Below, one piece after another: positions 9,301 to 31,492 of a stretch of DNA of 31,492 bases. The number at the start of each line of letters is the position of its first letter. Position 1 is the stretch's first letter. The notes under the pieces are model-generated. The model was given only the letters and a program-made list of their open reading frames with translations, had not been told where the DNA came from and searched no databases. Origin of the DNA: a virus (taxonomy: Duplodnaviria; Caudoviricetes); IMG/VR virus record IMGVR_UViG_3300020414_002934, positions 1 through 31,492 of that record; one strand, 5' to 3'. Position numbers and translations under genes: made by a program.

Positions 9301-9483
9301 ATGCTTTGGCATATACTTTTAACAATTTGTGCAGGAAGTACCTGCCTTTCACAAGACGTACAATGGTTTGAAAATAAAAAAGAATGTGAGATTATGTTAG
9401 TTCAATATGCAGAAATCCCAGCAGACGGTGAATGGGATTCAGTAGAATATATTTGTAAACCAGTAGGGAGTACAGGAACATAA
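9301..9483 (+). CDS. Small hypothetical protein (60 aa) with hydrophobic N-terminus and 4 Cys
   Basis: Strong AGGAGG RBS; TAATG coupling to the PAAR gene. Confidence 0.65.
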   Translation: MLWHILLTICAGSTCLSQDVQWFENKKECEIMLVQYAEIPADGEWDSVEYICKPVGSTGT

Positions 9484-9785
9484 TGCCAGGAGTAGTAAGA
9501 ATAGGAGATAGTTTATCAACAGGACATATTTGTACTGCCGTAACCACACTTGGTGGAGCGGCTCAAAGTACAGTATCGGCAAATGGAATTTTAGCGGCTG
9601 TTGTGGGAGCACCTACAGTAGCTCATCCATTTCCACCCTTACCACCGTGCGCTCCTCATGTAGCTAACTTAAATGCAGGTTCTCCAAATGTGTTTATAAA
9701 TGGAATTGCAGTTGGTCGTATTGGTGATTCAGCAGATGCTGGAGCTATGATTAGTGGTTCCAGTTCAGTAATAATTAACGGATAA
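9483..9785 (+). CDS. gp5.4: PAAR-repeat spike tip protein (gp5.4)
   Basis: MPGVVRIGD...GH, GSPNVFINGIAVGRIGD and ISGSSSV motifs; His/Cys metal ligands; downstream of gp5. Confidence 0.9.
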   Translation: MPGVVRIGDSLSTGHICTAVTTLGGAAQSTVSANGILAAVVGAPTVAHPFPPLPPCAPHVANLNAGSPNVFINGIAVGRIGDSADAGAMISGSSSVIING

Positions 9786-9791
9786 GAAAAG

Positions 9792-10880
9792 ATGCTTTGT
9801 GGAAAGAATCCAGCCCTTGACGATATTATGGGCAAAGTCGATGAGATTAAAGGTAAACTTGCTGAAGGTATGGGAGCTTTAGGAGACCTTGAAGCAAAAG
9901 CAAATGAAGCTTTAGCTGGTTTACAGGCTGAATTACCAGAACTTCCAAGTGTAACATCATTGCAAGGTGATTTAGCAGCTGCTCTAGGATCAGCCCAGTC
10001 TGACTTTTCTGGAGCTTTGGCTAGCTTCAAAGAAACTTGGGGTGATAAACTTCCTATATCTGAAATTGAAGGTTACTTTGATCAAATATCTGGAGCAATT
10101 AGTGATCCTACATCACTTCTTAGTTTTGATCCATGTAAAGCTTTTCCAAATAAAGAAATTGATTCATCAACAGGTGAAGTAGTTCAAAAACCAAAGGTAA
10201 TTGAAACACCTACAAAGGCACCTGAAAAAACAGTTGACTTTAGTCAAATTGAAACAGTAGTAGCAGGATTTAAAGACGCTTTAGGAAAAGATATTCCGGA
10301 AACAACGATAACAGGTCCATCCACAATAGATCTTTCTCAGTTAACATCAGCATTTTCTCCAGCCGGTACTTCCTTTGGAGGATCAGGTTATGGTGAATCA
10401 ATGAAAGTAAGAAATAAAGTATTGAAGACTGTTACTGATCATTTTACTCCAATTGTAAGACAAGCTAGGCTAGCATATGAAAAAGAAAAGAAAAAACCAG
10501 AATATAAACAAACAGGTGGAGATGGTATTAATGGCCAAGCTGCTGCAAAAAGAGATAGGTTATATAGAAAAGGTAAAATGACTGCTAAACAAGTTACTTG
10601 GTATGAAAGTTTTCTGGATTTGGAAATAGTTTATCAACAAGTACAAGAAAGAAGAGATCTTATTAAAGATCAACTATTAGTTTATATTGAATTTTTAACT
10701 GGTCGTGTTTCACAAGAAAATTTGGATAAAGGTGAAAAAACATTTAAAGAAGATCCAAGACTTGTAGATTCTGATATAGAAATGTATGAAACAGGAAAAG
10801 CTGAACTGGATAAAAATAAAGATAAATTTGCTTCTGTTGGAGCACATACTAATCAAGTAGTATCCAGCGCCACACAATAA
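9792..10880 (+). CDS. Hypothetical protein, probably virion-associated (362 aa)
   Basis: Long ORF within the late structural operon. Helical N-terminus (MLCGKNPALDDIMGKVDEIKGKL); no recognisable motif. Confidence 0.65.
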   Translation: MLCGKNPALDDIMGKVDEIKGKLAEGMGALGDLEAKANEALAGLQAELPELPSVTSLQGDLAAALGSAQSDFSGALASFKETWGDKLPISEIEGYFDQISGAISDPTSLLSFDPCKAFPNKEIDSSTGEVVQKPKVIETPTKAPEKTVDFSQIETVVAGFKDALGKDIPETTITGPSTIDLSQLTSAFSPAGTSFGGSGYGESMKVRNKVLKTVTDHFTPIVRQARLAYEKEKKKPEYKQTGGDGINGQAAAKRDRLYRKGKMTAKQVTWYESFLDLEIVYQQVQERRDLIKDQLLVYIEFLTGRVSQENLDKGEKTFKEDPRLVDSDIEMYETGKAELDKNKDKFASVGAHTNQVVSSATQ

Positions 10881-18600: not shown

Positions 18601-20976
18601 GGTCAAATTGACCTATCACCTACAAGTGATGAATGGAAAGAGACAGACGTAAGACCAGAACTTATTATTGATAACGAAGGTCTATTTGATGTGGTTAATA
18701 CTTTGGCTAATGAAGATGGTGTACTTGGTACAGTTTGGAATGAGTGGGAAACTCAGTGGGCTGGTAGAGAAATGCAAATTGGTGAAGATAGCCAACATCA
18801 AAGATCAGGCCGAAGAATTTTTGTAGATACTCTAATTGCCCGTCAAGAAACTCAAACAAGAACTGGTGTTCGTACATCGGTTGCACCTGATACTATTCAA
18901 ACATCATTTGGTGAAAGAGTTGTAGACGTAAGAATGGTACCATTTATTAGATCAAGAAGAGTTAAATTTAAGGCTACAAGATTTAAGCCTAACACAAGAT
19001 TGTATCCTTTCTTTGAAGATATTTCTGTAAGTGACTTCACTAATAATATTACAGCAGCTCAGTTTATTAGACATTCAACTACACCTGTAGATCCAGAGCC
19101 AAACTTTAGTGCGGTGCGTCACCCTGATCTTTCTGCTTCAAATATTTCGGCTGGAGATAATGCGCTTATTACAGATCCAACAGGAACTGTACATGGTGAA
19201 TTCTATATTCCAAATACTGCAGCAATTAGATTTAGAACTGGTGAAAGACTCTTTACACTAGTTGATGATCCAAACAACAACAATGCAAATATTACAACTT
19301 CTGGTAGAGCAACATATGCCGCTTCTGGTATTATTAACTCCACACAAGAGGTAAGCTTACGTTCACCTACACTTACACAAGAGTCAGTAAACGATCAAAG
19401 AAGTACAGTTGTTACTCGTCAGTCTACACGTACAGTTGGCTGGGTTGATCCTCTTGCTCAAACCTTCTTGGTTGATAATCCTGAAGGTGCATTTATGACA
19501 AGTGTAGATCTATTCTTTAGTGAAAAAGATCTTAATATTCCTCTTACACTTCAGATTCGTGGAGTAGTAAATGGTTATCCTTCTCCAGAAATTCTGGCCT
19601 TTGGTGAAGTTGTAAAACCTGCAATTGATATTAATACATCGGACGATGCTACATCAGCTACTACCTTTACATTTCCAGGACCAGTTTATCTAAGACCAAA
19701 CCAAGAATATGCACTTTGTCTCTTGGCTAACTCAAATGCTTATAGAGTATATACTGCTGAAATTGGTCAAAATTCTATTGGAACTACAAGACGTATTTCT
19801 ACACAACCATATGCTGGTGTATTCTTTAAATCTCAAAATGGTTCAACTTGGTCAGCCGATCAAACTAAAGACCTTATGTTTAAGATTAAAAGAGCAAATT
19901 TTGATACAACTGCAAGTGGTGTGGTAGACTTTACTAATGCTGCTATTATAGCTAGACCATTAAGTGCAAATCCATTCAAAACAACAAATGCCCAAACTAA
20001 GGTTATTGTTAAACATAGAAACCACGGTATGCCGTCTGGTTCTACAGTAACTATAGCTGGAGTTGCATCTGATGTTGGTGGAATCGCATTTAGCCAATTT
20101 AATGCTAACCATGTTATTTCACAAGTAGAACAAGATCAATATGCCATTACCTTAGCATCACAAGCTACCGGAACTACAACTGGTGGTGGAACTGCAGTAA
20201 CAGCTACTGAAAATAAACATATTGATGTTCTTTATCCTAGTATGCAAGAAGTAATACTTCCAGAAACAACTATTGCATATGCATTGAGAACTACTTCTTC
20301 ACAATCACTAGCTGGTACTGAAAATACATATCAAAAACCAACTTCGTATACATCAATCATTTCAAATCAAAGTTACTATCCAGATGCTCCTCAACAAGTT
20401 GCTTCACCAATCAATGAAACTACCTCCATGGCTGGAGCTAAATCATTTGACCTAAGAGCTACGTTAGCATCTACTAATTCTTTCCTTAGTCCAATGATTG
20501 ACCTTGAAAGAACTTCAGTTCATACAATTGCAAATAGGATTGATAATCCTCAGTTACTTGCTGGAACTGATAGTGGTAAAAATAATGTTGCTGACTTCTT
20601 GCCTGAAACCGCACCAACTGGTGGATCAGCCTTGGCCAAATATATTACAAGAAAAGTAACCTTGGCTCAAAGTTCTATTGGACTTAGAATTATATTTGCT
20701 GCTAATAGACCTGATGGATCTGAAATTGAGGTATATCATAAGACTCAAGAGGCTGGTGCAGATGCTCCATTTGCAGGACTTAATTGGGTACAAGCCACGC
20801 TTGATAATGCAGTAGCAAGTACTGATGATCCAAGAGAATTTAGGGATTATGAATATACAGTTGATCTAAGTTCATCACCATTCCAGACTGTAGCAATCAA
20901 AGTAGTATTTAAATCTCAATCTTCGGTAGCTACACCAAGAATTAAAGATTTTAGAGTTATTGCGTTAGGTACATAA
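15688..20976 (+). CDS. Large virion structural protein, VrlC/DUF4815-like (1762 aa)
   Basis: FN.SPYYDDF, YYRILFRP...LQARELTQLQS.LQNQI, APGANR.KI, ARRTYDESGDY, GKAYVRGYE, FTMRDIG.LE.RI.NLEYYTSLSLLE and DPLAQTF motifs. Confidence 0.85.
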   Translation: MTLDFNISPYYDDFETNAKQQYYRILFRPSVALQARELTQLQSTLQNQIKSFADHTFEDGAMVIPGATALDKDYGFIKVGSTFSSADVELYRAEFLNTIITGQTTGVTAKVVGTVPVTGSDPITLFVKYTSSGTNKTTKTFAQNEVVVSNASTPRSAQIENVSGSVGFGSAANIQPGIYYVSGTFAFVTSQTLVLDKYTNTPSYRVGLTVNATIVSSTTDSNLNDNATGSPNFAAPGANRYKIELTLTKKGLTATDDQNFIELLRVENGVIANQIRSTEYSVLEDTFARRTYDESGDYAVRPFGIDVREHLQVNNNRGIYASGNGGSDAKLAVGIEPGKAYVRGYEIETLSTTFLDVNKARDTQQIKNSIVPFQMGNFTLVNTTTNLPDVSNYEKLDLISSASTVIGTARARAYELHSGTQGTSGAVYKLYLFDIQMSGSNLFSAVNTINTVGSTSGKFASTTVKTSGSATLNEIQNNDLLFPLPYQTVETIRDQSNAIDTTITVRRVYTRTLSSGLNTITAGSDESFQTPYSGVDFLVANASTGTVYDMSLSDGTGGAPRLSISGTNSVNLQIDLTGASLTNETLTVIATVVKRVSQEKQKTLVQNHNLDIASPNTTVNATDSLLKADIFKLVAVHDSGVAGTNATTSDLNITDRYELDNGQRDNFYDVGSIKLKPGMPPPSGRILIIFDYFTHGAGDYFSVDSYSNQVTYAEIPTYASANTTYELRDVLDFRPRVRDDGQSFTNAGGTNQSGAALTEIGKIASNMIMDFRYFLPRTDKIYVDPKGNFKVVEGVSAANPATPSDPDDGMVLYTLRLNPYTFDVNDIVPERKDNKRFTMRDIGRLEHRINNLEYYTSLSLLEKETADAQILNSSNVDRFKSGFIVDPFYGHNIGNPKDPDYHVSIDADAGEARPQFYEGNVRIEQSGSGSSSTYQQTGDIISLPYTETTIIDQPFASGTENVNPYDIFQFIGQIDLSPTSDEWKETDVRPELIIDNEGLFDVVNTLANEDGVLGTVWNEWETQWAGREMQIGEDSQHQRSGRRIFVDTLIARQETQTRTGVRTSVAPDTIQTSFGERVVDVRMVPFIRSRRVKFKATRFKPNTRLYPFFEDISVSDFTNNITAAQFIRHSTTPVDPEPNFSAVRHPDLSASNISAGDNALITDPTGTVHGEFYIPNTAAIRFRTGERLFTLVDDPNNNNANITTSGRATYAASGIINSTQEVSLRSPTLTQESVNDQRSTVVTRQSTRTVGWVDPLAQTFLVDNPEGAFMTSVDLFFSEKDLNIPLTLQIRGVVNGYPSPEILAFGEVVKPAIDINTSDDATSATTFTFPGPVYLRPNQEYALCLLANSNAYRVYTAEIGQNSIGTTRRISTQPYAGVFFKSQNGSTWSADQTKDLMFKIKRANFDTTASGVVDFTNAAIIARPLSANPFKTTNAQTKVIVKHRNHGMPSGSTVTIAGVASDVGGIAFSQFNANHVISQVEQDQYAITLASQATGTTTGGGTAVTATENKHIDVLYPSMQEVILPETTIAYALRTTSSQSLAGTENTYQKPTSYTSIISNQSYYPDAPQQVASPINETTSMAGAKSFDLRATLASTNSFLSPMIDLERTSVHTIANRIDNPQLLAGTDSGKNNVADFLPETAPTGGSALAKYITRKVTLAQSSIGLRIIFAANRPDGSEIEVYHKTQEAGADAPFAGLNWVQATLDNAVASTDDPREFRDYEYTVDLSSSPFQTVAIKVVFKSQSSVATPRIKDFRVIALGT

Positions 20977-21179
20977 TGAGAGTAAATATAAAAGATAAGC
21001 CAGGCCTACAAAGAGATTTAACAAGTGGTGCTGTAATAAATACTGATAATAATGCTTTTTTGAAAGCAGTAAAAGCAAATGAAATGGCAATGGCAAAAGA
21101 ACAAGAGTTACTTGATATTAAAAATGATGTCAAAGAACTAAAACAACTAATGCAAACAATTATTGAGAGGCTTAACTAA
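20976..21179 (+). CDS. Small hypothetical protein with C-terminal coiled coil
   Basis: L.RD..SGAVINTD motif and heptad C-terminus. TAATG-coupled on both sides. Confidence 0.75.
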   Translation: MRVNIKDKPGLQRDLTSGAVINTDNNAFLKAVKANEMAMAKEQELLDIKNDVKELKQLMQTIIERLN

Positions 21180-22357
21180 TGGCTGCAATTAATGTACCAA
21201 CAACTGATACCTTCGAACAGTGGAGGACAAAAACTAATAACCTGTCCAACCTAGTTGGAGATGGAGCCACACTTACAAGCCAATATACTGGAAGCGATGT
21301 TATATCTGTTCTAAATGAAATTAAATCAGCTTCCACATTTGATAATATTGTAACCATTAACGATCAAGCAACTGATGGAACTACTGAATTAGCTGGTAAT
21401 GCCGCTAATTTAATTATTAGTGCGGGTGCACAAACTGTTCTTACACTAAATCAAACTGGTGATGTTGCAGTACATGCCGATTTAACTACTGGAGCATCTG
21501 CAAGTATAGGTACAACCCTTGGTGTAACTGGTGCGGCAACTGTTGGTGGTACTACTACCTCTCAAGGTCAAGTAATTGCAAATGCTGGTATTGATTGTAA
21601 TGGAAACCAAGACATCTCAGGTACTTTGGATGTTGGCGGTGCTACTACTGTAGGTGGCACACTTGGAGTAACTGGCAATACTACATTAGCAGTAACACAA
21701 ACTGGCAATCTTACAGTAAATGGTACACTTAATGCTGGTGCAAATACTATTACCACAACTGGTAATATGAATTGTCAAACTTTGACAACTAGTAATAATC
21801 TTGTAGTTAATGGTAATACCACACTTGGTAATTCAACTGCAGCTGATTTAGTTACATTTGGATCAAGAGTAAATACTGCAATTAATCCAAGTTCAGATAA
21901 TGGATTTACATTAGGAACTTCATCTTTAAGATGGTCAACGGTTCATGGTGTTACCTTCTCGGGTACAGCAACTACCGCAAACTACGCTGACTTGGCTGAG
22001 CTTTATCTTTCTGATTTTGCATATGAAGCTGGTACCGTGGTAAGAGTTGGTGGTGAATTTGAAGTTACAGCTACTGATGGTGATCACAATCATTCAGTAC
22101 TTGGAGTTATTTCTGCTTATCCAGCATATCTCATGAATAATCAACTAGAAAACGGTATCCCAGTTGCATTGAAGGGAAGAGTTCCAGTTAAAGTTAAAGG
22201 CTCAGTAAATAAAGGCGACCGATTAGTTGGTGGTAAAGATGGGCATGGAATTGCCGATAATGACTCACCTCACGGGTTTGCGATTGCGCTTGAATCTTTT
22301 GAGGCTAAAAAATCTGGAAAGGGTCAATACGGCGTAATAGAAGCCGTAGTTCTCTGA
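21179..22357 (+). CDS. Tail fibre/spike-like protein with C-terminal intramolecular chaperone (Peptidase_G2/IMC-like) domain
   Basis: N-terminal TDTFEQWRTKTN attachment motif; Gly/Thr/Val beta repeats (GTLGVTG); C-terminal YADLAE...GTVV...VLGVIS..PAYLMN...PVALKGRVPVKV.G.V.KGD.LV. Confidence 0.75.
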   Translation: MAAINVPTTDTFEQWRTKTNNLSNLVGDGATLTSQYTGSDVISVLNEIKSASTFDNIVTINDQATDGTTELAGNAANLIISAGAQTVLTLNQTGDVAVHADLTTGASASIGTTLGVTGAATVGGTTTSQGQVIANAGIDCNGNQDISGTLDVGGATTVGGTLGVTGNTTLAVTQTGNLTVNGTLNAGANTITTTGNMNCQTLTTSNNLVVNGNTTLGNSTAADLVTFGSRVNTAINPSSDNGFTLGTSSLRWSTVHGVTFSGTATTANYADLAELYLSDFAYEAGTVVRVGGEFEVTATDGDHNHSVLGVISAYPAYLMNNQLENGIPVALKGRVPVKVKGSVNKGDRLVGGKDGHGIADNDSPHGFAIALESFEAKKSGKGQYGVIEAVVL

Positions 22358-22358
22358 G

Positions 22359-22886
22359 TTAAACATCATTGTACAAATATAAATCAAATGCAGCACTTAA
22401 TCTTAACTGCTTAGTTGGCCTGACTGAATGATAAAGAAAGCTTGGAAAGATGAGTACATCACCCTGCTCTGGCTGATAAACGGTTGGCTCAAACATAGGC
22501 CTAAACCTTAAATCATATCCCCTTGAAGCAAATCCTCTTGGATCATAAAATACTATTTCACCACCTTCACCAGCTTCTAATATTACAATAGCCGAAAGGT
22601 GAGAACCAGCATGAGTATGAGCTTCCATTCCTGGATGTCCATGCTCATACTTATTGACCCATGATTTTAGTTGATAGTGACCCCAGTCATCAAGATTCAT
22701 TCCTTGACTGGCTAGGTAGTCATCAAACTCCATTTCCATTATTTCTTTAAGTGTATCAGTTATTTCATTTCTTTCTATAGCTGGCATTAGAACTTTATCA
22801 TCATCCAGTATAATTTTGGACTTACTAATTACCGTCGGGTAAAGTAGATTTAAGCCCACATTCAGCGTCATAGTATTTTCTGACAT
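22359..22886 (-). CDS. Putative 2OG-Fe(II) oxygenase (TIGR02466-like)
   Basis: SWVN, HTH, G.IVFYDPR, GDVLIFPSFLYHSV and R.S.AFD motifs. Confidence 0.85.
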   Translation of the reverse strand: MSENTMTLNVGLNLLYPTVISKSKIILDDDKVLMPAIERNEITDTLKEIMEMEFDDYLASQGMNLDDWGHYQLKSWVNKYEHGHPGMEAHTHAGSHLSAIVILEAGEGGEIVFYDPRGFASRGYDLRFRPMFEPTVYQPEQGDVLIFPSFLYHSVRPTKQLRLSAAFDLYLYNDV

Positions 22887-23250
22887 CGGGTACCATTCCT
22901 TCTAGTTTTAAGTGGCCTTTATTATTATTGCAAACCACTTCAATTATTCTATCATATGTTTTTTTATCTTCGCTATATGGAACAAAGTAGGGATCCATTG
23001 GAAGCAATTCGGGATCTTTTAATACAGTATAAAAATTTTCATTATAGTCTTCCATTATCCAAAATGCATAGCAAATAGCAACCATATAAGATTTTGCTGG
23101 ATATATCCAACCAACATCGGTTTCTCTAAAATATTTTATTGCATCATTGACTATATCGTTTGAAAGAATAATTTCAACATCAGTCAAATCATCTTCAAAT
23201 TCTTTATTAAGCTTGTGATATAACTTCTGTTTGATTCGCCATTCTTGCAT
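22825..23250 (-). CDS. Hypothetical protein of the radical SAM cluster
   Basis: 141-aa ORF overlapping its neighbours in operon fashion; WIYPAKSY..AICYA and DPYFVPY segments; no family recognised. Confidence 0.65.
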   Translation of the reverse strand: MQEWRIKQKLYHKLNKEFEDDLTDVEIILSNDIVNDAIKYFRETDVGWIYPAKSYMVAICYAFWIMEDYNENFYTVLKDPELLPMDPYFVPYSEDKKTYDRIIEVVCNNNKGHLKLEGMVPDVRKYYDAECGLKSTLPDGN

Positions 23251-23638
23251 ATTTTTTTACCGCTCTCATTAAAAAATATCTTTGTATTGAATTGTGTAAA
23301 AATGTGAATTTGCATTCCAATTTATAAACTGGTTCTGAAAATTTATACGTATCTTCTACAACGCATTTTACAAAAAAATCTTTAAATTCAACATAAGGAG
23401 ACTTAAAACATATGTGTGGATCATCATCATTGCCGTGCCCTTCGCAACTTCCTACAGTATCTATTCCTTGACTTAACATGTAAAGCACATGTGGCCAGAT
23501 CTTCTTTTCTATTCTTGTTTTAAATTCTGGATGTGTAACTGGTAAAGAATATCCTGTATAGTCTTCTCCTATATGAGTAAAAGGCATAATTTTATTGTGC
23601 TGTTTTTCCATACCAGTCAATAAGTCCTCTGTATCCAT
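23207..23638 (-). CDS. Hypothetical protein with T.xSCEGH motif
   Basis: GIDTVGSCEGH motif. The true start may be the ATG at 23611 or later. Confidence 0.6.
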   Translation of the reverse strand: MDTEDLLTGMEKQHNKIMPFTHIGEDYTGYSLPVTHPEFKTRIEKKIWPHVLYMLSQGIDTVGSCEGHGNDDDPHICFKSPYVEFKDFFVKCVVEDTYKFSEPVYKLECKFTFLHNSIQRYFLMRAVKKYARMANQTEVISQA

Positions 23639-24497
23639 TGCAAGAGTTTTTTAAGTCTTTAACATATCTATAATGTTCAGTTAGACAATGTCCAAAATAA
23701 CTACAACTATTACAAATAGGAGATTGTACTCTTTTTTCTTGCCAAGCCCATTGTTGATATGAACTATAGCTTGGTAGCTCTAAAAAATATTCATTATCGT
23801 TTTTATCAAATTCTAATACACCAAACTTTCCATTGGGTGTAATATATACATGGTCATCACTCCAAGCATTATAATGTTTGTTATAACTATCAACTATATT
23901 GTCATAATTGATAAATTGAAAGTTCTTTTGTATTGGAGACTCTAACCATTTTATAACAAAATTCTCATAATCCTTGTGAGTTATTTCAAATGTATTAGCC
24001 TGATTAGTAGAATATGGTTTTATTTCAACAGAGATAATAGAATTAATCAGATTTAAGTTCTGAACCATCTCGTCCACATCCATTGTGATAACCCTTGGTG
24101 ACGCCAAGATCAGCAAGGATATTGGCTTAGGGCTATACAACATATTATGGAATACTATTTCATGTTTTTCTCTCGCCTCAAAATCATATGATACTGATAA
24201 TGATACATCATCTGCAAAAAACCTATCGTCTAACATAGAAAAATTTGTATTGATATTGATTGTACCATCATAATGTTTTTTTATAACTTCTTTTATTTCT
24301 TCGTAATATGATCTTTTGATTGCACCAATCTCTCCACCATATAAATCAATATGGTCAATAGAATCTTCTACCTGTGATAAAAGCTCATCTAGTTTTTCTG
24401 GTTCTATCTTTTTTTGATCACCCAATTGTTCTGGTGTAAGATAGCAGAAGTCACATCTAAAATTACAAAAATATGTTGGATTGATTGATATATTCAT
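23592..24497 (-). CDS. Radical SAM protein with a partial SPASM-like C-terminus
   Basis: NPTYFCNFRCDFCY (CxxxCxxC), YGGE and NTN motifs; C-terminal CNSCSYFGHC...C. Confidence 0.9.
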   Translation of the reverse strand: MNISINPTYFCNFRCDFCYLTPEQLGDQKKIEPEKLDELLSQVEDSIDHIDLYGGEIGAIKRSYYEEIKEVIKKHYDGTININTNFSMLDDRFFADDVSLSVSYDFEAREKHEIVFHNMLYSPKPISLLILASPRVITMDVDEMVQNLNLINSIISVEIKPYSTNQANTFEITHKDYENFVIKWLESPIQKNFQFINYDNIVDSYNKHYNAWSDDHVYITPNGKFGVLEFDKNDNEYFLELPSYSSYQQWAWQEKRVQSPICNSCSYFGHCLTEHYRYVKDLKNSCNGYRGLIDWYGKTAQ

Positions 24498-25525
24498 ATT
24501 GATTCATTTACGTATGGTGTCATTTGCATATCTAATCCATTTGCTTCTAAAATATCAGGACCAAGTTGTTTCATATGATAGCAATGATCTTCTACCATAT
24601 CATGTTCTTTAAGGTCCTTGATTGTTTTTTTACAGCCATTACAAATACTAAACATGGGACAAGAATAACATCCCATTTTAAGACTATTCAGTTCAGGTGA
24701 ATCAGCCAATGGTGTAACAAAGCCACCTTTCATTTCAAAATCAAAGTCAATAGCTTTATCTTTATCATCACCAAAGGCTCCACAAGAATAGTAATCACCT
24801 TCGGGTTGTATGGTTCTAATATTACTGTCACACGTACGCGTGAGCGGGCAGATGGTATTTTCACCTCGAATACGTTTCATCATTTGTTGAGTATTATGTT
24901 CCCAAGGTGCTAAACCAGCTTTCCATATACTAATATAATGTTCATATATTTTAGAAAGTCTATATGGAGCATCTTGTTCTCCAGAGGCCATGGCATAGTT
25001 TACTTTACAAACCACACCCATTTCTTTTGCTAACTCTACAGTTTTTATTACACTCCATTCGTTTTCTTCAGTAATAACTGCAATAAATTCTGGTCTATAT
25101 CCAACATAATATAACATATAATCAGAGCACATAGTAAAGTCTTCTTCAGTAAATACTGAATAGTCACCTTTTAATCTACCGTTTCCATATTGAAAAGAAG
25201 TGCATACACCCACTCTTTTATTTTTAAAAAGTGGTAACCATTTATCTTTATTTTTATAGAAAGGCCAAAGATTAGTAGTAAGAGATATATTGGCAGGCAA
25301 ATCATTTTCATCTAAGTAATTAATAATTTCCCAGTAATACTTGGGATCCATCATCAAAGGGTCACCACCATTTACAATAATAGTGTTAGTCTCTGGATAC
25401 CTATCCAAAAACTGAAAAATTTTCATCAAGTCAAGCTTTGATGCTTTATCTTCTACTAATTTTGTGCTTGAACAGAATGTGCATTTAAAATTGCACAACT
25501 CAGTTGGCTTAATTATCAAATCCAT
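24494..25525 (-). CDS. Radical SAM/SPASM domain protein
   Basis: IKPTELCNFKCTFC, NGGDPL and TTN motifs. SPASM-like C-x10-G-x4-C ... CxxC-x5-C-x2-C ... C. Confidence 0.92.
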   Translation of the reverse strand: MDLIIKPTELCNFKCTFCSSTKLVEDKASKLDLMKIFQFLDRYPETNTIIVNGGDPLMMDPKYYWEIINYLDENDLPANISLTTNLWPFYKNKDKWLPLFKNKRVGVCTSFQYGNGRLKGDYSVFTEEDFTMCSDYMLYYVGYRPEFIAVITEENEWSVIKTVELAKEMGVVCKVNYAMASGEQDAPYRLSKIYEHYISIWKAGLAPWEHNTQQMMKRIRGENTICPLTRTCDSNIRTIQPEGDYYSCGAFGDDKDKAIDFDFEMKGGFVTPLADSPELNSLKMGCYSCPMFSICNGCKKTIKDLKEHDMVEDHCYHMKQLGPDILEANGLDMQMTPYVNESI

Positions 25526-25537
25526 AATTAATCAATT

Positions 25538-26194
25538 TTATACTGTATGTTGAGTTCTCTTATTCCTTAACTCGTCGCCTTTATTTACCACTTGTGCATT
25601 TACAACAAGTGTAAGTCTTTCTTCATCACCATGATAATGTGTAACTTCGTGCCATAGGTATTGTGGTGCAATAACCATAGTACCTCTTTTTGACTTGAAC
25701 TTTTCTAATCTTGATCCACCAAAGTAATAGTTTCTTTGCCACCTTGGATCATACAATACGAGCTCACCGCCTTCTTCATCACTTACGTCGTTAAAATATA
25801 TGCAAGCAAAAGCGTCATCAGAATAATGCGTATGTACACCAAGCCTATATCCTTTCTTCATTAAGTTAATTTTACAGGAATCTAGCTCGCAATCCAAAAT
25901 CATTTTATCGGTATTTGATTCTGTCATGTTTTCTAAATTACTATAAGCAAGAGCTATAAAACCTTTTTTAACTTCGTCAATAAGCTCTTTCATTTCTGGA
26001 CATTGGCCTTCAACTATAGCATCAATAACAATATTTTCATTCCCATCTTGATATTCAGCATGGTCATTATCAGTTGAGCTTATAAAGTTTAAGTGCTGAG
26101 CCCGTAGAAAACTTTCTATTACTGCAAGTTTTTCTTCACTAATATCCAATTGCTTATGGTAAATATTAGTGGGATATATTTCTTTTATTGCCAT
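25538..26194 (-). CDS. Putative 2OG-Fe(II) oxygenase (TIGR02466-like)
   Basis: HTH, GGELVLYDPR, G...IAP..LWHEV and ERLTLVVN motifs. Confidence 0.85.
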   Translation of the reverse strand: MAIKEIYPTNIYHKQLDISEEKLAVIESFLRAQHLNFISSTDNDHAEYQDGNENIVIDAIVEGQCPEMKELIDEVKKGFIALAYSNLENMTESNTDKMILDCELDSCKINLMKKGYRLGVHTHYSDDAFACIYFNDVSDEEGGELVLYDPRWQRNYYFGGSRLEKFKSKRGTMVIAPQYLWHEVTHYHGDEERLTLVVNAQVVNKGDELRNKRTQHTV

Positions 26195-26197
26195 TTT

Positions 26198-26503
26198 TTA
26201 ATTCTCATCATTAGGTTTCTCATACCCATATTTATACACGCAGTTTTGTTCGTATGGTGTTTCACTAATAGAATCTACACCTTCAATTTGACATATTTCT
26301 CTATTACAAACACGAATTTCTTCTTTTACCATATTAGCATACGGCTCAAGATTGTCTATCATTTTCAAGTACATTTCGTATTTCTCTTTATTGTCTTGGA
26401 AATCATGCATCTTTGTTATCCACAGGTTGTATAACTCTGCAGTTAAATCTCTTTCTGAGCATAATATCTTTTTTCTATTCAGTACGTCCTGTAGAGAAGT
26501 CAA
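26198..26503 (-). CDS. Hypothetical helical protein with several Cys
   Basis: 101-aa ORF filling the gap between two oxygenases. The TTG start is uncertain. Confidence 0.55.
   Translation of the reverse strand: MTSLQDVLNRKKILCSERDLTAELYNLWITKMHDFQDNKEKYEMYLKMIDNLEPYANMVKEEIRVCNREICQIEGVDSISETPYEQNCVYKYGYEKPNDEN
26229..26236 (-). promoter_or_regulatory. Candidate T4-type late promoter TATAAATA inside the radical SAM cluster
   Basis: The minus strand reads CGTGTATAAATA (26240-26229), identical to the 12-mer at 10881-10892. It lies about 35 nt upstream of the ATG at 26194, but within a coding region. Confidence 0.45.
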
Positions 26504-26981
26504 AAGAACAAAGCCTCCTTCTTATTTTTGTATCATCTGCCTTATGCCAAAATCCTCTAATATTTGAAACTAAAAAAAGATCTCCTGCCATTGGCTGATA
26601 ACTAGCTGTTTTATCTCCATCCCATTTAAAGTTAATTGCTCCACCACTTTCTTTATATGTATGGTCTAAGTAATATAGAAAAAAGACATCATAGTCTTCA
26701 AACATATCAGTATGCCAACCTTGGTTATCCTTATCAACTCCATCCCATATAAGATATTTGTTAAAGATAGCCTCTGGCCATTCTGGTAAAATATATGTCT
26801 GATAAAGATGTTGACCAAATAAATTTAATTTGTTGGCCAAGAGATGATCAATATCTTCTTTACCGTTATCCCTTGCTCTTTCTTCTGTATTCAAAAGTTT
26901 ATGTTCATTGATTTGTATTAAATCTAGTCCTTGTGGTTCATAAAATTTTACATATCCTTTTGTATAGATATCTGATATCAT
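26475..26981 (-). CDS. 2OG-Fe(II) oxygenase superfamily protein
   Basis: WHTD (HxD), YLD, GG.INF, GDLFL, WHKA (distal His) and RR.CSFD motifs. Confidence 0.8.
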   Translation of the reverse strand: MISDIYTKGYVKFYEPQGLDLIQINEHKLLNTEERARDNGKEDIDHLLANKLNLFGQHLYQTYILPEWPEAIFNKYLIWDGVDKDNQGWHTDMFEDYDVFFLYYLDHTYKESGGAINFKWDGDKTASYQPMAGDLFLVSNIRGFWHKADDTKIRRRLCSFDFSTGRTE

Positions 26982-28651
26982 GCTAGCCTCTTAAATAATT
27001 CACTCACAATTAGAGTTCGATTATACTTTAAGAACTCTTCGATTGTTTCCACTCTAAATTTACCACCAAGTTGTCTTATAGACTTAGGTGGAGTGGATGG
27101 ATCGAAGATGTCCTTTATTTCTTTATATATCTCTTCCCATCCATCCATCTTTATTATAACACAAAAACACTGCTTTGTAAATAGGGAAGGTGAACAAACA
27201 TCATCAAAAATTGGATAAAGATTACGCAATAGCCAATTTGATGCATTATTCATAAACCACATTTCCATCATATCTTCTTTGGTAAATGAGTTACATGATA
27301 GTATGGTTTTGAAATATGTTTTCTTTTGTTTATATAAACTATGCCAGTTATCACTACCATCTTCATCCACGATATCAGTATAGACTTCCACTGTCTGGAT
27401 GTTATGTAGTTTTTTGTAAGATTCTGAATTTAATCGTGAATCAGGTAGAAACATATAATCATGTCTAAATGAACTCCATGCTTGAAAATTCCATATCACT
27501 TCCATTTCGTCATAAAAATCTTGTATTGTAGAACCTGGCATTGCTAATATAAGTTCAAGAGCTGGTATAGGAAATCCTTCTTCACTACATCTTTGATTGA
27601 TATATCTACTTAGTTCTAGTTTATCGTTATTTGATAAATCAATTCTATCAGCCATCTTCATAGCTGTATCACTAATACTTTGTATGGACACTGTTGGTAC
27701 TACTGAAACATATTCAGTTTCTCCCCACATATCAGTACCACCTTGAGCCTTTGAATGTTTTTCTGGACCTGTACCTACAATATTAAACCAACGATCAATA
27801 AGACGTTTTCGCCTTTTTAAATCTTTTGACTTCATAGTAGAAATATCAGTAAGGTTAAATTTATTGGTCCAAGCAAATTCAAATATTTCTAGATCCCTAT
27901 CTTCAAAGGCACCAAAATTAGCATCAGTTAAATAGGCATCTCGGTATCCAGCTTTTTTCAAAGCCATGACATCACGTTTTACTATTGACACGTCTTTTTT
28001 ATAGATCTTAGTATTAATACCTCCACCCCACTCGCAAAAGACACATTTATATGGACAACCTCTTGTAGTTTCAAGAACTATAAAAGGTTCCATTTTGTTT
28101 TCCCATGCATAATTAACTGATTCTTTTAAATAATCAAAGTGCTCTTCATATACAGAATAATCTTCGGTAGATAAATCATGAATGCGACCTTTACCATTAC
28201 GAAGTTCCCATGCTATATTTTGTGGGTCTAATCTGTCTTCAATATAGCAATCAATAAGGTCTTCCATAAAAGGTTCACCTGGTTTTGTAGGCTCACAAAT
28301 ATAATCATAAAACCATCTTTGTTTTAGTAACTCAGGTTCGTTTGTTCCAATATGTGGACCACCAAGTACTAAAATTTTATCAGGATATTCTTCTTTTATT
28401 TGTTTAGCGATGCCATCCACAATTGTATAGTTCCAGGCGTAGGAGCTGAACATGATGACATCAGCAGGCATAATCTCTCTGATGACTTCATTGTGTGATT
28501 CGTACTTGTTCCATTTGTACGGGGCTGGAAGAAACTTAACTTGATCTGCATAACGGCCTCTGTGCTTATAGTGACTCTGTATTAATAGGTAGGTCACATT
28601 ATTCGCTAGTGACCAGTCAGCGTGCGGTGGATTTATAAATGCTATCTGCAT
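26978..28651 (-). CDS. Cobalamin (B12)-binding radical SAM protein
   Basis: N-terminal B12-binding-like domain (FSSYAWN...ILVLGGPH...GE), then ETTRGCPYKCVFCEWG, TDANFG, SIQS and ELILAMPG.T. Probable start is MQIAFINPP at 28651; the ORF track starts at 28681. Confidence 0.88.
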   Translation of the reverse strand: MQIAFINPPHADWSLANNVTYLLIQSHYKHRGRYADQVKFLPAPYKWNKYESHNEVIREIMPADVIMFSSYAWNYTIVDGIAKQIKEEYPDKILVLGGPHIGTNEPELLKQRWFYDYICEPTKPGEPFMEDLIDCYIEDRLDPQNIAWELRNGKGRIHDLSTEDYSVYEEHFDYLKESVNYAWENKMEPFIVLETTRGCPYKCVFCEWGGGINTKIYKKDVSIVKRDVMALKKAGYRDAYLTDANFGAFEDRDLEIFEFAWTNKFNLTDISTMKSKDLKRRKRLIDRWFNIVGTGPEKHSKAQGGTDMWGETEYVSVVPTVSIQSISDTAMKMADRIDLSNNDKLELSRYINQRCSEEGFPIPALELILAMPGSTIQDFYDEMEVIWNFQAWSSFRHDYMFLPDSRLNSESYKKLHNIQTVEVYTDIVDEDGSDNWHSLYKQKKTYFKTILSCNSFTKEDMMEMWFMNNASNWLLRNLYPIFDDVCSPSLFTKQCFCVIIKMDGWEEIYKEIKDIFDPSTPPKSIRQLGGKFRVETIEEFLKYNRTLIVSELFKRLA

Positions 28652-29636
28652 ATCTAAAAGTCGCCTTAAAAACGCATTCACTCATATCTTGTTCTATATG
28701 TTTATAGTCTTCTTTAATAAAACAAGATAAAGGACAACGTTGAAAAAATTCACATTCAAAACAATTATACTTATCTAAAAAATTCTCAACAATTACTGGT
28801 CCACCCAATTCAGGTGTTTGAGCCTCTTTCAAAAAGACAGCACCAGAACATCCTTCTGGCTTAGCGCCATCAGGCATAATAGTTAAAGAGTTACCTCTTG
28901 TACATATCATTTTGTTTGCTGGTTTGTCATTAACGAAATGATCTATATTCAAACACCTAGGGTATTTATTCACTAACACCTTATAGAATTCAAATAAATC
29001 TCTTTCACTAGGCATTAAAACTCTTGAGGTAGCTACACTTGGTAGGAAGTGATCAAAGTCACAGGTATAGTTAGTATAAAGAGCTTCAAATATTTGATCG
29101 CCTTCAATAATTTTATCTATGTTTTGTTTGGTTGCTACAAGAGAAACCATTTGAATATAGTCTTGAAAATATCTTATATTGCGTGTAAACTTATCTAAAT
29201 CACTTTTACTAAATCGGCCTGCAGGGTCATAACTTATAGAAAATTTTAGATCATTCCGAGCTAAAAAATACATAACCTCAGTGACATTATCAAAACATAA
29301 GTTAGTAATAAAATTAAAATATATGTCTGCTTCAGTTTGTTCGTCAATAGCTTTTATAAAATCTTCATACGTATCTATGAAGCCATCATCAATCCATCTA
29401 TCTTGAAATAGCTCACCACCCATAATATGAATTTTGTAAGATTGTTTTCTTGGATTATTATTGATCCATTCGACAATAGGATCAACCTTAGCCATTATCT
29501 CATCATGACTAGCACCAAGTATAGATTTATGATCTTGTGGACAGAAGACGCACTTAAGATTACAGTGCTCAAATAGACATACAACTATTTCACCATAACG
29601 AACGACTTTTGCATCAATAATATCATATATGTCCAT
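28617..29636 (-). CDS. Radical SAM protein with SPASM-like C-terminus
   Basis: FEHCNLKCVFC, MGGE, ITN and ISYD..GRF motifs. C-terminal C...G.....C ... CFECEFFQRCPLSC (Cx2Cx5Cx3C) ... C. Confidence 0.9.
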   Translation of the reverse strand: MDIYDIIDAKVVRYGEIVVCLFEHCNLKCVFCPQDHKSILGASHDEIMAKVDPIVEWINNNPRKQSYKIHIMGGELFQDRWIDDGFIDTYEDFIKAIDEQTEADIYFNFITNLCFDNVTEVMYFLARNDLKFSISYDPAGRFSKSDLDKFTRNIRYFQDYIQMVSLVATKQNIDKIIEGDQIFEALYTNYTCDFDHFLPSVATSRVLMPSERDLFEFYKVLVNKYPRCLNIDHFVNDKPANKMICTRGNSLTIMPDGAKPEGCSGAVFLKEAQTPELGGPVIVENFLDKYNCFECEFFQRCPLSCFIKEDYKHIEQDMSECVFKATFRYADSIYKSTAR

Positions 29637-30772
29637 TACATTATAGCGTATTGTTCTCTAAAGTCTTTATTACCGTCTAACAGTGCTTGTACAAAATAGT
29701 GATTTACAGTCTCTAAATCAATGGAGAAGAATGAACCTGCTGCATGCTCATAAGTAGCTTCGGTTTTAATAATCATATCAAGCTGCTTATCAGTCATTTC
29801 AGATCCACGAATACACTCAATAAAGTCTAGTTTACCAATGTCTGACTTTACATATTCATACTGGCTTTCCTGCCAATTTGCACCAGCCAACTTAGCAAAC
29901 TTAGCAATTGACTTAATATGTTTATCAGTAATTCCTGCAAAATTTACGTTTTTACCAGAAGTTGGTCGACTCATATATGGTTGGTTCCAAATATTTTTAT
30001 TTAAAAATAGACTTGGAAATTCAGATTTGTCTTTTAAGATCTCATCATAATTTGTAAAGTCATATGTCTTATCAAGGTCAAGTGTTTCAGTAAATCTCTT
30101 TGTAAGGATATGAACAAAAAATGTTTCTTTAAGTTCATACAAATACTTTTCAAGGTCCTTTTTAACTAAGATGCGCATTACTGTTTTTAGTTCTTTTTTG
30201 CATTTGCCATTAGCAAGATATGTTGCCAATAGATATTCTAAACTTATGGATGATTTATTTTCTGTCAAAAACTTTTTTCTACGTTCGGCTGATGGCTTTT
30301 GCGCACCATCAAAAATCTTACCAAAGCCTTCAATATTAATTTCATATGGTTCATCTGTATTACCGTTATTAGAAGTAAATCTGCCTTGGCCAAATAGTTT
30401 GTGTTTGAATACCATTGACTCCAAAAGATCTACTGCAGCAGATTTATTAGTTTTCTTAAATATCATTCTAAACCATAATGCCATAACCTTCATAAATGCT
30501 TGATGGTCACAGTAAATAACAACTCTTTTACCGTGCTTATCAGTATGATCTCCTAACTTATCAAACATATCTACTGTGTCTACGTATGGTAGATTTTTTG
30601 ATCCTATTAGGTTTTTAACTTCTTTAGCAAAAGCTAAAAGTGTACCTGGTTGTGAAGCCTTAAGTGATTCTAAAAGGTCAACGCCATGTTCTCTCGAAAT
30701 TACTACTCGATCAAATGATACATCAATATTGTTATCTGGTGCTACGTAGACCTTTTTAAATAGATGTAGCAT
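29636..30772 (-). CDS. Hypothetical protein of the radical SAM cluster (378 aa)
   Basis: Long ORF with TAATG coupling to the downstream rSAM gene. MLHLFKKVYV start and VVIYCD segment; no family recognised. Confidence 0.7.
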   Translation of the reverse strand: MLHLFKKVYVAPDNNIDVSFDRVVISREHGVDLLESLKASQPGTLLAFAKEVKNLIGSKNLPYVDTVDMFDKLGDHTDKHGKRVVIYCDHQAFMKVMALWFRMIFKKTNKSAAVDLLESMVFKHKLFGQGRFTSNNGNTDEPYEINIEGFGKIFDGAQKPSAERRKKFLTENKSSISLEYLLATYLANGKCKKELKTVMRILVKKDLEKYLYELKETFFVHILTKRFTETLDLDKTYDFTNYDEILKDKSEFPSLFLNKNIWNQPYMSRPTSGKNVNFAGITDKHIKSIAKFAKLAGANWQESQYEYVKSDIGKLDFIECIRGSEMTDKQLDMIIKTEATYEHAAGSFFSIDLETVNHYFVQALLDGNKDFREQYAIM

Positions 30773-31427
30773 TCTTGTTCTCCTGTAATGTTCCGGTAGC
30801 GATACCGTGTGTTAATAGAAACATGGGATTGTTTTCATTTGCCCAGTAACTATATAAGTTGTTTCCCTTAAACATATATTCATTAAAATATGATTTGTAA
30901 AAAGTTTTATGGTCATCAATTACGTTTCCATAAAACTGAAAAAATCTTTCATGGTTTAAAAGAGATACCCAATTAATTCCAGTTAAATCTTTTGTATCAT
31001 CTTCTGGAAACGATTCAACATAATCTTTAAACTCTACAGAATTTACTGTGTAAAGGTTATAAAGTGAAAGTGAATCAAGTTTTTTTGCCCAAGACTTAAG
31101 TATATCTACATTGGCATCAATAAATTCTTTTTCGGTTGGTTCAACTAAACCTTTCATTTGCAATAAAAGTTCTGTAACTCTTTCTTTTAGAATTGGTATG
31201 TCTACAATAAAGTTTGCCTCAAGGTAGTGCTTAGTCATCTCATCAAAACCTTCTTGTGTGGTAAATCCAATATCGCATGGAATTTCTAGGTTACCCAGAT
31301 ATGTAAGCAGTTTTGGTCCTTGAAGAGTAGAATCCTCATAATGGATCATATAAAAAGTTTCTTTATTACTAAAAAATAATTTAAGCTCCGATATATCGAT
31401 AGGAGCAGTTGTCTCAATTATATTCAT
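30756..31427 (-). CDS. Hypothetical protein of the radical SAM cluster (223 aa)
   Basis: TAATG-coupled to the upstream Cys-His-repeat ORF. ETTAPI...LK.FF and LLTYLGNL.IPCD segments. Confidence 0.7.
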   Translation of the reverse strand: MNIIETTAPIDISELKLFFSNKETFYMIHYEDSTLQGPKLLTYLGNLEIPCDIGFTTQEGFDEMTKHYLEANFIVDIPILKERVTELLLQMKGLVEPTEKEFIDANVDILKSWAKKLDSLSLYNLYTVNSVEFKDYVESFPEDDTKDLTGINWVSLLNHERFFQFYGNVIDDHKTFYKSYFNEYMFKGNNLYSYWANENNPMFLLTHGIATGTLQENKNATSI

Positions 31428-31492
31428 TATCTTCTTCCTCTAGAGCTATGGCATGAACTATGGCATGAAGCGTGGCATACATCAATTTGAAT
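31427..31492 (-). CDS. 3' end of an ORF with a C-terminal (C-H-x-S)3 repeat; candidate radical SAM substrate or precursor
   Basis: Hand translation: ...IQIDVCHASCHSSCHSSRGRR*. The TAA at 31429-31427 overlaps the next ATG. The 5' part lies outside the window. Confidence 0.75.
   Translation of the reverse strand: MQIDVCHASCHSSCHSSRGRR
31446..31478. repeat. Imperfect 12-bp tandem repeat encoding CHxS
   Basis: Plus strand reads ctatggcatgaa ctatggcatgaa gcgtggcat. Confidence 0.8.

Follow-up and report, generated by a model that had tools for sequence, protein, structure and literature searches.

A Radical SAM and Oxygenase Cassette beside Phage Tail Fiber Genes and Its Cys-His-Tailed Candidate Substrate

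Gene Content of the Cassette

The window analyzed here (positions 1-31,492) is a whole contig of a marine phage, IMG/VR record IMGVR_UViG_3300020414_002934, on which Pfam and PHROG searches identified T4-like baseplate, tail-tube, VrlC-like, and fiber genes together with a cassette of radical S-adenosylmethionine (SAM) enzymes (rSAMs) and 2-oxoglutarate (2OG)-Fe(II) oxygenases. The cassette lies on the minus strand (22359-31492; Table 1) and comprises 12 complete open reading frames (ORFs), encoding four rSAMs (one of them B12-type), three 2OG-Fe(II) oxygenases, and five unassigned proteins, as well as one ORF cut by the contig end. Nine of the 11 gene junctions overlap and the remaining two are gaps of 3 and 12 nt, which bears out the co-oriented, overlapping cluster of about 9 kb described over this span in an initial annotation made from the sequence alone. 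The enzyme set proposed there (three CxxxCxxC rSAMs, one B12-binding rSAM, and three 2OG oxygenases) is supported by Pfam and PHROG matches, several of them below Pfam cut-offs. Since the window is the entire contig, the cassette is incomplete at its upstream end; in the closest relatives, two more genes, for a cupin/JmjC protein and a fifth rSAM, lie upstream of the counterpart of the cut gene.

The cut ORF, hereafter SUB, is the candidate substrate of these enzymes. Its 63 coding bases translate to IQIDVCHASCHSSCHSSRGRR, directly followed by a stop codon, which agrees with the Cys-His tail noticed earlier on the first visible gene and gives the tail form CHASCHSSCHSSRGRR. The CHxxCH motif occurs once in the six frames of the window; 100 shuffled versions had it 0.01 times on average. 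At its other end, the cassette is convergent with a fiber gene, the stop codons being 1 bp apart, and this junction is spanned by an independent DNA contig (run X1, covering 18654-23924).

Table 1. Genes of the cassette and the adjoining fiber gene
Feature	Position	Strand	Evidence and remarks
SUB 3' end, candidate substrate	31427..31492	-	cut by contig end; tail C-H-x-S-C-H-x-S-C-H-x-S-R-G-R-R
Gene A, 223 aa, core, function unassigned	30756..31427	-	phrog_20767 E 1e-56
Gene B, 378 aa	29636..30772	-	N-terminal half phosphatase-like fold, model pLDDT 88
Radical SAM, 339 aa, SPASM-type	28617..29636	-	PF04055 E 1.6e-4; phrog_1802
B12-binding radical SAM, 567 aa, accessory	26978..28681	-	PF02310 + PF04055
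2OG-Fe(II) oxygenase, 168 aa, accessory	26475..26981	-	PF13640 E 9e-5
101-aa ORF, accessory	26198..26503	-	no family match
2OG-Fe(II) oxygenase, 218 aa, accessory	25538..26194	-	PF13640/PF13759; phrog_81
Radical SAM/SPASM, 343 aa, core	24494..25525	-	PF04055 E 2e-8; TIGR04085 E 1e-4, below cut-off
Radical SAM, 301 aa, core	23592..24497	-	PF04055 E 3e-8
143-aa ORF, rare in relatives	23207..23638	-	no family match
141-aa core gene	22825..23250	-	phrog_20737 E 5e-43; conserved Y-P-A-K-S-Y motif
2OG-Fe(II) oxygenase, 175 aa, last cassette gene	22359..22886	-	PF13759 E 2e-13
Tail-fiber gene, 392 aa	21179..22357	+	phrog_19602 tail fiber E 1e-19

The Tailed Protein and Its Linkage to the Cassette

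A search for relatives with gene A returned 25 viral loci and 15 cultured jumbo phage records, three of which (RSF1, Atu_ph07, and pPa_SNUABM_DT01) were analyzed, giving 28 loci. All 28 carry one ORF of 178-296 aa that ends in CHxxCHxxCHxxRxRR and adjoins gene A or B; it is preceded by a radical SAM gene in the 28 loci and, in most, by a cupin/JmjC gene as well. In the reverse direction, a search with the 343-aa rSAM gave 277 relatives, from which the 80 best loci were taken; 79 of these were new and were analyzed, and the 51 carrying at least 8 kb upstream, many of them close kin, served as the denominator. The tailed gene lies within the flank in 39 of these 51, the other 12 having a rearranged form; among ten rearranged records searched, six hold two tandem tailed genes just past the flank and four end too early. 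Overall, the tailed gene was found in 45 of 51, and the other six records stop before its expected place (four searched, two short ones not). The upstream rSAM is present in all 51 loci, the cupin gene and the 301-aa rSAM in 48 each, the 339-aa rSAM in 47, and the 141-aa gene in 44; for genes A and B, BLAST gives too low a count in this set. The co-occurrence of the CHxS ORF with the gene set, which the initial annotation had put forward for checking, is thus seen in both searches (28/28 and 45/51), and the contrary case named beforehand, homologous clusters without that ORF, did not turn up among the 28 gene A loci.

In its closest relatives SUB has a length of about 190 aa, and the family spans 126-296 aa, with some longer fused forms, in 629 clusters at 50% identity (E up to 0.001). 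Of the 120 closest homologs, 119 have the strict CHxxCHxxCHxxRxRR end, as do 137 of the 150 best family representatives, and 117 of those 119 homologs have no Cys outside the tail. The body is highly divergent, so that PHROG matches between lineages are mostly confined to the last ~28 residues, and it takes large inserts and Gly-rich fusions. The model of SUB from one relative (L001) is globular (predicted local distance difference test, pLDDT, 85) with a low-confidence tail, and matches structurally the 296-aa gp170 of Atu_ph07 (E 4e-8) and other phage proteins. Its fold gave no PDB match by sequence, Foldseek, or wide alignment (best Z 3.9), which does not by itself prove a new fold; there was no Pfam match for this protein and no NCBIfam match for seven SUB proteins. 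Judging from the model, the candidate substrate is a folded protein and not a short peptide.

Several variants were observed. Three SUB variants (L091:6872-7456, L092:6911-7432, and L093:6902-7432) have the tail CHGS[IL] without the Arg-rich end, with several core genes missing, and are a natural test of the enzyme and residue requirement. The cassette of RSF1 includes two dihydrofolate reductase (DHFR)-like genes and an HNH gene (L026:15602-16718). A contig from a Bacilli metagenome-assembled genome (MAG), probably phage DNA, carries a cassette with six or seven rSAMs and, nearby, three proteins that lack the tail but look similar at the N-terminus (L035:1-3092 and 9371-10051). In MAGs titled Marinovum, Methanobacteriota, and Rickettsiales (L029, L030, and L031), the cassette stands among phage fiber and VrlC-like genes; these are apparently phage contigs that binning placed in the MAGs, and not part of a host genome.

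Enzymes and Helper Genes

The CxxxCxxC motif is found in all four rSAMs and is kept in the alignments of their relatives, while PF04055 is above cut-off in two of the four window enzymes and below it in the other two. SPASM-like tails had been ascribed to three of them; this stands for the 339-aa enzyme, with seven conserved C-terminal Cys (64-sequence alignment), and for the 343-aa enzyme, with eight, but not for the 301-aa enzyme, which has a partial auxiliary cluster only (C262, C265, C271, and C286, plus an invariant H275). The 343-aa rSAM is the most conserved core gene, with 53-60% identity to cultured jumbo phages. TIGR04085 is above cut-off in the upstream rSAM of relatives, which also bears a SPASM-type Cys motif. 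The initial annotation suggested checking whether the rSAMs group with cofactor enzymes. All NCBIfam matches of the window enzymes fall far short of their cut-offs, and for the 301-aa enzyme the strongest of these weak matches are viperin and cofactor enzymes, via the core motif only.

The B12 enzyme matches PF02310 (E 5e-7, just under cut-off), no named NCBIfam subfamily above cut-off, and the enzymes TokK (E 9e-20) and CysS (E 1.5e-15), and by these matches is likely a C-methyltransferase. It is present in 33 of the 51 loci and not in the three cultured-phage loci, and is accessory, not core. The 168-aa oxygenase, with conserved H90-x-D92 and H146, travels together with the B12 enzyme and the 101-aa ORF (11 of 51 loci). 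The 175-aa oxygenase occurs in 37 of 51, and the 143-aa ORF has a single BLAST-level homolog in loci L001-L036.

The enzyme number varies from 4 to 9 rSAMs, with an optional B12 enzyme, oxygenases, DHFR-like genes (RSF1), and GT8-like genes (bacteria), as could be expected if the enzymes made a small molecule, a cofactor, or a surface or DNA modification, and the tail were a metal- or cofactor-binding receiver or an unmodified neighbor. The closeness of the B12 enzyme to the small-molecule methylases TokK and CysS points the same way, as does the interpretation of marine phage rSAM clusters as Fe-S-related metabolic genes (PMC5332604). However, the tight two-way linkage to the tailed protein, the SPASM-type Cys motifs, the tail-module location, and the finding of no conserved nucleotide-handling genes in the cassette make this alternative quite unlikely.

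Gene A shows no conserved Cys or His in its alignment, no PDB sequence match, and nothing in the ESM Atlas, where gene B found unnamed clusters only. The N-terminal half of gene B resembles dual-specificity and protein tyrosine phosphatases (DSP/PTP), which fill most top rows, with a best Z of 6.9 (below 8; root-mean-square deviation 4.0, 135 aligned residues) that lies in the range of a common arrangement, and a best Foldseek E of 0.22. The CX5R catalytic loop was not found in the alignment, which has I-Y-[C/A]-D instead, with no Arg and a non-conserved Cys; gene B is likely non-catalytic and may be a binding helper. Homology between genes A and B was considered and none was detectable by comparison; alignment A3 wrongly took in one gene-A-type row (L104:3128). 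A complex prediction with genes A and B of the window and the L001 SUB scored 0.00, which carries no weight either way.

Association with Tail Fibers and Presence in Virions

A fiber gene flanks the cassette, upstream or convergent, in 21 of the 25 viral loci, the other four being cut by contig ends, and these fiber genes share a C-terminal domain with the 392-aa gene of the window. A profile of this domain (A6) weakly matches the self-cleaving phi29 gp12 chaperone (3gqh, E 0.007) and the Dpo31 chaperone (28nb, E 0.028); neither this chaperone-like domain nor that of the bacterial partner described below has a Pfam match. In both rearranged records examined, the SUB genes begin 1 nt after the fiber gene, and the Gly-rich domain PF21722 is fused ahead of SUB in three of seven long homologs and in one representative.

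The virion proteome of Atu_ph07 (PMC6102473, Table S5) includes the tailed protein gp170, with 8 peptides and 35% coverage, and the fiber gp176, with 14 peptides; the neighbors of gp170 (gp165-169, gp171, and gp172) are not in that virion list. The initial annotation had offered two options, a RiPP-like product (RiPP, a peptide made on the ribosome and modified post-translationally) or the modification of a virion component. The second is much better supported, because SUB is predicted to be a folded protein and its Atu_ph07 homolog occurs in virions, and the first did not hold up as well. In the RiPP-like alternative, the SUB body would be a large leader or carrier, and the modified tail would be released as a cationic 16-mer against the host or competitors. 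A variable N-terminal body followed by an invariant Cys-rich C-terminal core, weak best matches to DynA, PapB, and TIGR04083, and the tandem duplicate SUB genes of six records would suit such a product. However, RiPP cores are usually more variable than leaders, the opposite of the pattern in SUB, and the large inserts and Gly-rich fusions of the body are unlike a simple leader. No conserved protease or transporter was found in the loci examined, and with a SUB homolog present in virions (PMC6102473) a released peptide appears rather unlikely.

In the gels of the same study, gp170 (31.9 kDa) is most abundant in band 1, the peak of 87-139-kDa proteins, after sodium dodecyl sulfate (SDS) and 95 °C (PMC6102473). 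Such a shift would be consistent with covalent glue, in which the enzymes link SUB tails with one another or with fiber or baseplate proteins and stabilize the particle instead of forming a receptor-binding tip. However, gp321 (36 kDa) likewise peaks in band 1, and since the loading buffer lists no reducing agent (PMC6102473), disulfides or an SDS-resistant oligomer may explain the shift. The link to pilin-anchored bacterial fibers also suits an adhesive role better, and the glue is unlikely.

Related Cassettes in Predatory Bacteria

A genome search found eight loci, four of them titled Bacteriovoracaceae or Bdellovibrionota, and one bacterial cassette is chromosomal, because nrdR and nusB adjoin it. 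Gene A is present in 25 of 238 genomes of the predatory-bacterium class, a SUB-like gene ending in R-x-R-R in 19 of the 20 bacterial neighborhoods examined, and the bacterial cassettes have the 141-aa gene as well. All 12 adjacent bacterial fiber genes tested encode Peptidase_S74, and nine of them match the pilin N-methyl family, four above cut-off. In 14 of the 20 neighborhoods a short chaperone-like partner gene adjoins, usually paired with the fiber gene. Genomes with the partner gene number 31 of 238, and they include 21 of the 25 with gene A, against 3.3 expected (Fisher p 7e-19, not corrected for kinship).

The pair consists of a fiber with a pilin-like N-terminus and S74 and a protein of 175-220 aa (L144:5755-7424, L149:17376-19099, L032:5191-6944, and others). 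This partner is made up of about 50 residues and a gp12-like chaperone domain, and does not appear in the accessible part of a study of Bdellovibrio mosaic adhesive trimer (MAT) fibers (PMC10769870). A strong partner-to-phage-fiber link (E 2e-11) was rejected, its profile having held the phage-type row L160, without which the match is weak. A GT8-like glycosyltransferase gene ends or interrupts bacterial cassettes (L032:18763-20162, L034:18740-20162, and L144:10249-11826).

Among the ten genomes with the partner gene only, seven have a different multi-rSAM cassette adjoining it, with at least six rSAMs each but four in one; of the others, one has a fiber gene with two rSAM-like and sugar genes, and two are at contig ends. 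The protein of this second cassette has 150-190 aa, an N-terminal Cys/His motif, and, in the six examined, an eight-Cys tail rich in C-N/C-H-N. The second cassette (L164-L169 and L172, e.g., L165:10246-19901) has up to seven or more rSAMs directly behind the partner gene. Its Cys/His-tailed protein is not supported as a SUB homolog (hhalign probability under 9%).

Expression Signals and Neighboring Genes

Of 28 lineages, 6 have a T4-type late motif 10-65 nt upstream of SUB, whereas for seven core enzyme and helper genes the count is 0 of 108. A raw count of 20 of 43 was dropped: near-identical loci had raised it, and so had a motif that lies within the coding sequence of the upstream rSAM. The six late-motif matches in the window are at chance level. 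One late-type match, TATAAATA (26229-26236, minus), lies within the 101-aa ORF, 35 nt before the 218-aa oxygenase, a gene preceded by this motif in 5 of 8 lineages. In several phages, a sigma70-like TTTACA/TTGACA-N17-TATAAT stands before the first cassette gene (L003:7850-7910; upstream of the cupin gene in L056-L061), which suggests that the enzymes may be expressed early or middle and the substrate late. In one metatranscriptome, short contigs cover 14 of 14 cassette bins versus 7 of 16 structural-gene bins; this does not rank expression, because the run was chosen via the cassette, offers contigs only, and may hold DNA. The runs gave no sequence for the missing 5' part of SUB.

Elsewhere in the window, two ORFs that follow the baseplate hub gene, a cut one of 672+ aa (3-2018, minus) and one of 115 aa (2030-2377, minus), match no family, and their position suggests a tape-measure-like gene.

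Comparison with Known Systems

The nearest studied system is the antiphage system HXS, in which HxsA is matured by the rSAMs HxsB and HxsC, with HxsD, carries an rSAM-dependent +8 Da change on its His-x-Ser repeat, and binds DNA in the periplasm (PMC13128918). In both, rSAMs accompany a folded protein with basic residues and with His-x-Ser repeats in tandem, here as three C-H-x-S units. In contrast to HXS, however, Cys opens each repeat, the tail is C-terminal, 4-9 rSAMs are joined by oxygenases, the cassette is phage-encoded, and a substrate homolog occurs in virions. The HxsB/HxsC models score 16-31 bits, TIGR03978 and TIGR03977 reaching at most 30.9 bits (cut-off 370) and 26.4 bits (cut-off 267.9), no window gene matches HxsD, and no peptidoglycan-binding domain was found in SUB (NCBIfam, Pfam); by these models the cassette falls outside HXS. 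The likeness of the His-x-Ser repeats and Arg-rich end to HxsA (PMC13128918) would fit a matured basic tail that binds DNA, with the protein entering the host envelope and aiding genome entry or blocking competing phages. As no HxsA-D family matches above cut-off, no peptidoglycan-binding domain or Pfam match was found in SUB (L001), and the neighborhood is one of fibers, such a role is very unlikely.

The cassette shares an rSAM core, SPASM-type Cys motifs, and an adjoining Cys-rich substrate with the maturases of ranthipeptides, sactipeptides, and protein thioethers. It differs from them in its globular structural substrate and several paralogous enzymes, and in that no RiPP recognition element (RRE), protease, or transporter was recognized in the window, as noted initially; neither of the latter two is conserved in the loci examined, and the substrate is a folded protein of about 190 aa, unlike a short leader-core precursor. 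For the models of PapB (NF047865), anSME (TIGR03942), DynA (NF041298), and QhpD (TIGR03906), whose cut-offs are 340-453 bits, scores do not exceed 40 bits.

Bdellovibrio MAT fibers are S74-chaperoned, phage-like adhesive trimers (PMC10769870), and the bacterial cassettes likewise adjoin S74-terminated fiber genes of predatory bacteria. The MATs have about 1000 aa and a signal peptide, whereas the cassette-linked fibers have 345-415 aa and a pilin-like N-terminus; the terms pilin and radical SAM do not occur in the accessible text of that paper (PMC10769870).

A small separate protein behind a chaperone-terminated fiber, with Gly-rich domain fusions, also resembles the gp37/gp38 arrangement. 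In T-even phages, the fiber gp37 is paired with the small tip adhesin gp38, which is not known to need modifying enzymes. No sequence or fold match was found, however, and the domain order is reversed in its fusions.

Phage rSAM clusters have been noted without a function in the accessible parts of three papers (PMC7029224, PMC11898562, and PMC5332604), and the cassette is not described in those of PMC7824862, PMC5468394, and PMC12801897. No description of the cassette, the tail, or the bacterial form was found in the openly accessible literature searched. Radical-SAM maturation of a folded protein is known; this setting is undescribed.

Proposed Role of the Cassette

The explanation favored here, somewhat better than even, is that SUB is a modified, intact, fiber-associated protein matured by the cassette enzymes. 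Its parts differ in strength. Action of the enzymes on the SUB tail is probable, because the cassette travels with SUB, a relative is found in virions, and predatory bacteria keep the block beside fiber genes. That the modified SUB stays whole in the particle is reasonably probable, and its placement on the fiber, touching the host, is a tentative proposal. Known SPASM enzymes make thioether bridges with Cys or link His with Ser and other residues, and from such family knowledge the rSAM/SPASM enzymes would cross-link the 16-residue Cys-His-x-Ser tail (thioether or His-based), the 2OG oxygenases and cupin would hydroxylate it, and the optional B12 enzyme would methylate carbon. The 141-aa gene and genes A and B may be non-catalytic helpers, and the matured SUB would probably join the end of the neighboring fiber as a host-contact part.

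Several observations weigh against this explanation. No enzyme reaches an NCBIfam maturase cut-off (best 49 bits versus 300 or more), and PDB sequence searches with the cassette enzymes matched no peptide maturase. For a tail of 16 residues, five rSAMs and four oxygenases are a large set, which leaves room for other substrates. The viral loci include many close kin, and mobile cassettes are in general plentiful in tail regions. The virion evidence comes from a single phage, whose stock was only polyethylene glycol-purified (PMC6102473). In bacteria, the tails are more varied (two Cys only in 6 of 19, and one Cys with His-Ser repeats in two), which indicates that three Cys are not essential, and by eye no obvious signal peptide was seen in the SUB proteins inspected, which a surface role must explain. 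The Fisher test ignores kinship, with a partner profile built from 14 cassette neighbors, and the partner matches the phage fiber C-terminal domain weakly (hhalign probability 15%, E 0.002; PDB E 0.24). Before SUB, 22 of 28 lineages lack the late motif, which also stands ahead of one oxygenase (5 of 8 lineages) and of the cupin gene (5 of 29 lineages), so that its support is modest.

A wider and more speculative possibility, held with less confidence, is that phages and predatory bacteria share an undescribed prey-recognition device, a small fiber-tip protein whose Cys/His tail several rSAMs and oxygenases would turn into a cross-linked binding element of RiPP-like character, while two or more enzyme-plus-tail cassettes could be exchanged on the same chaperoned fiber. 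If the proposed role is true, many large phages would need post-translational radical chemistry, a layer that sequence-based host prediction and fiber engineering ignore, to recognize their hosts, and a purpose would be found for rSAM/2OG clusters listed as unexplained accessory or Fe-S metabolic genes in the accessible parts of earlier papers (PMC5332604, PMC7029224, and PMC11898562). Five divergent rSAMs on one short invariant tail would be a compact source of new His/Cys/Ser/Arg chemistry. The cultured phage Atu_ph07, whose particles already show the tailed protein, makes the idea directly testable, and, if it is true, phage tail biology would be tied to prey attachment in Bacteriovorax-like predators.

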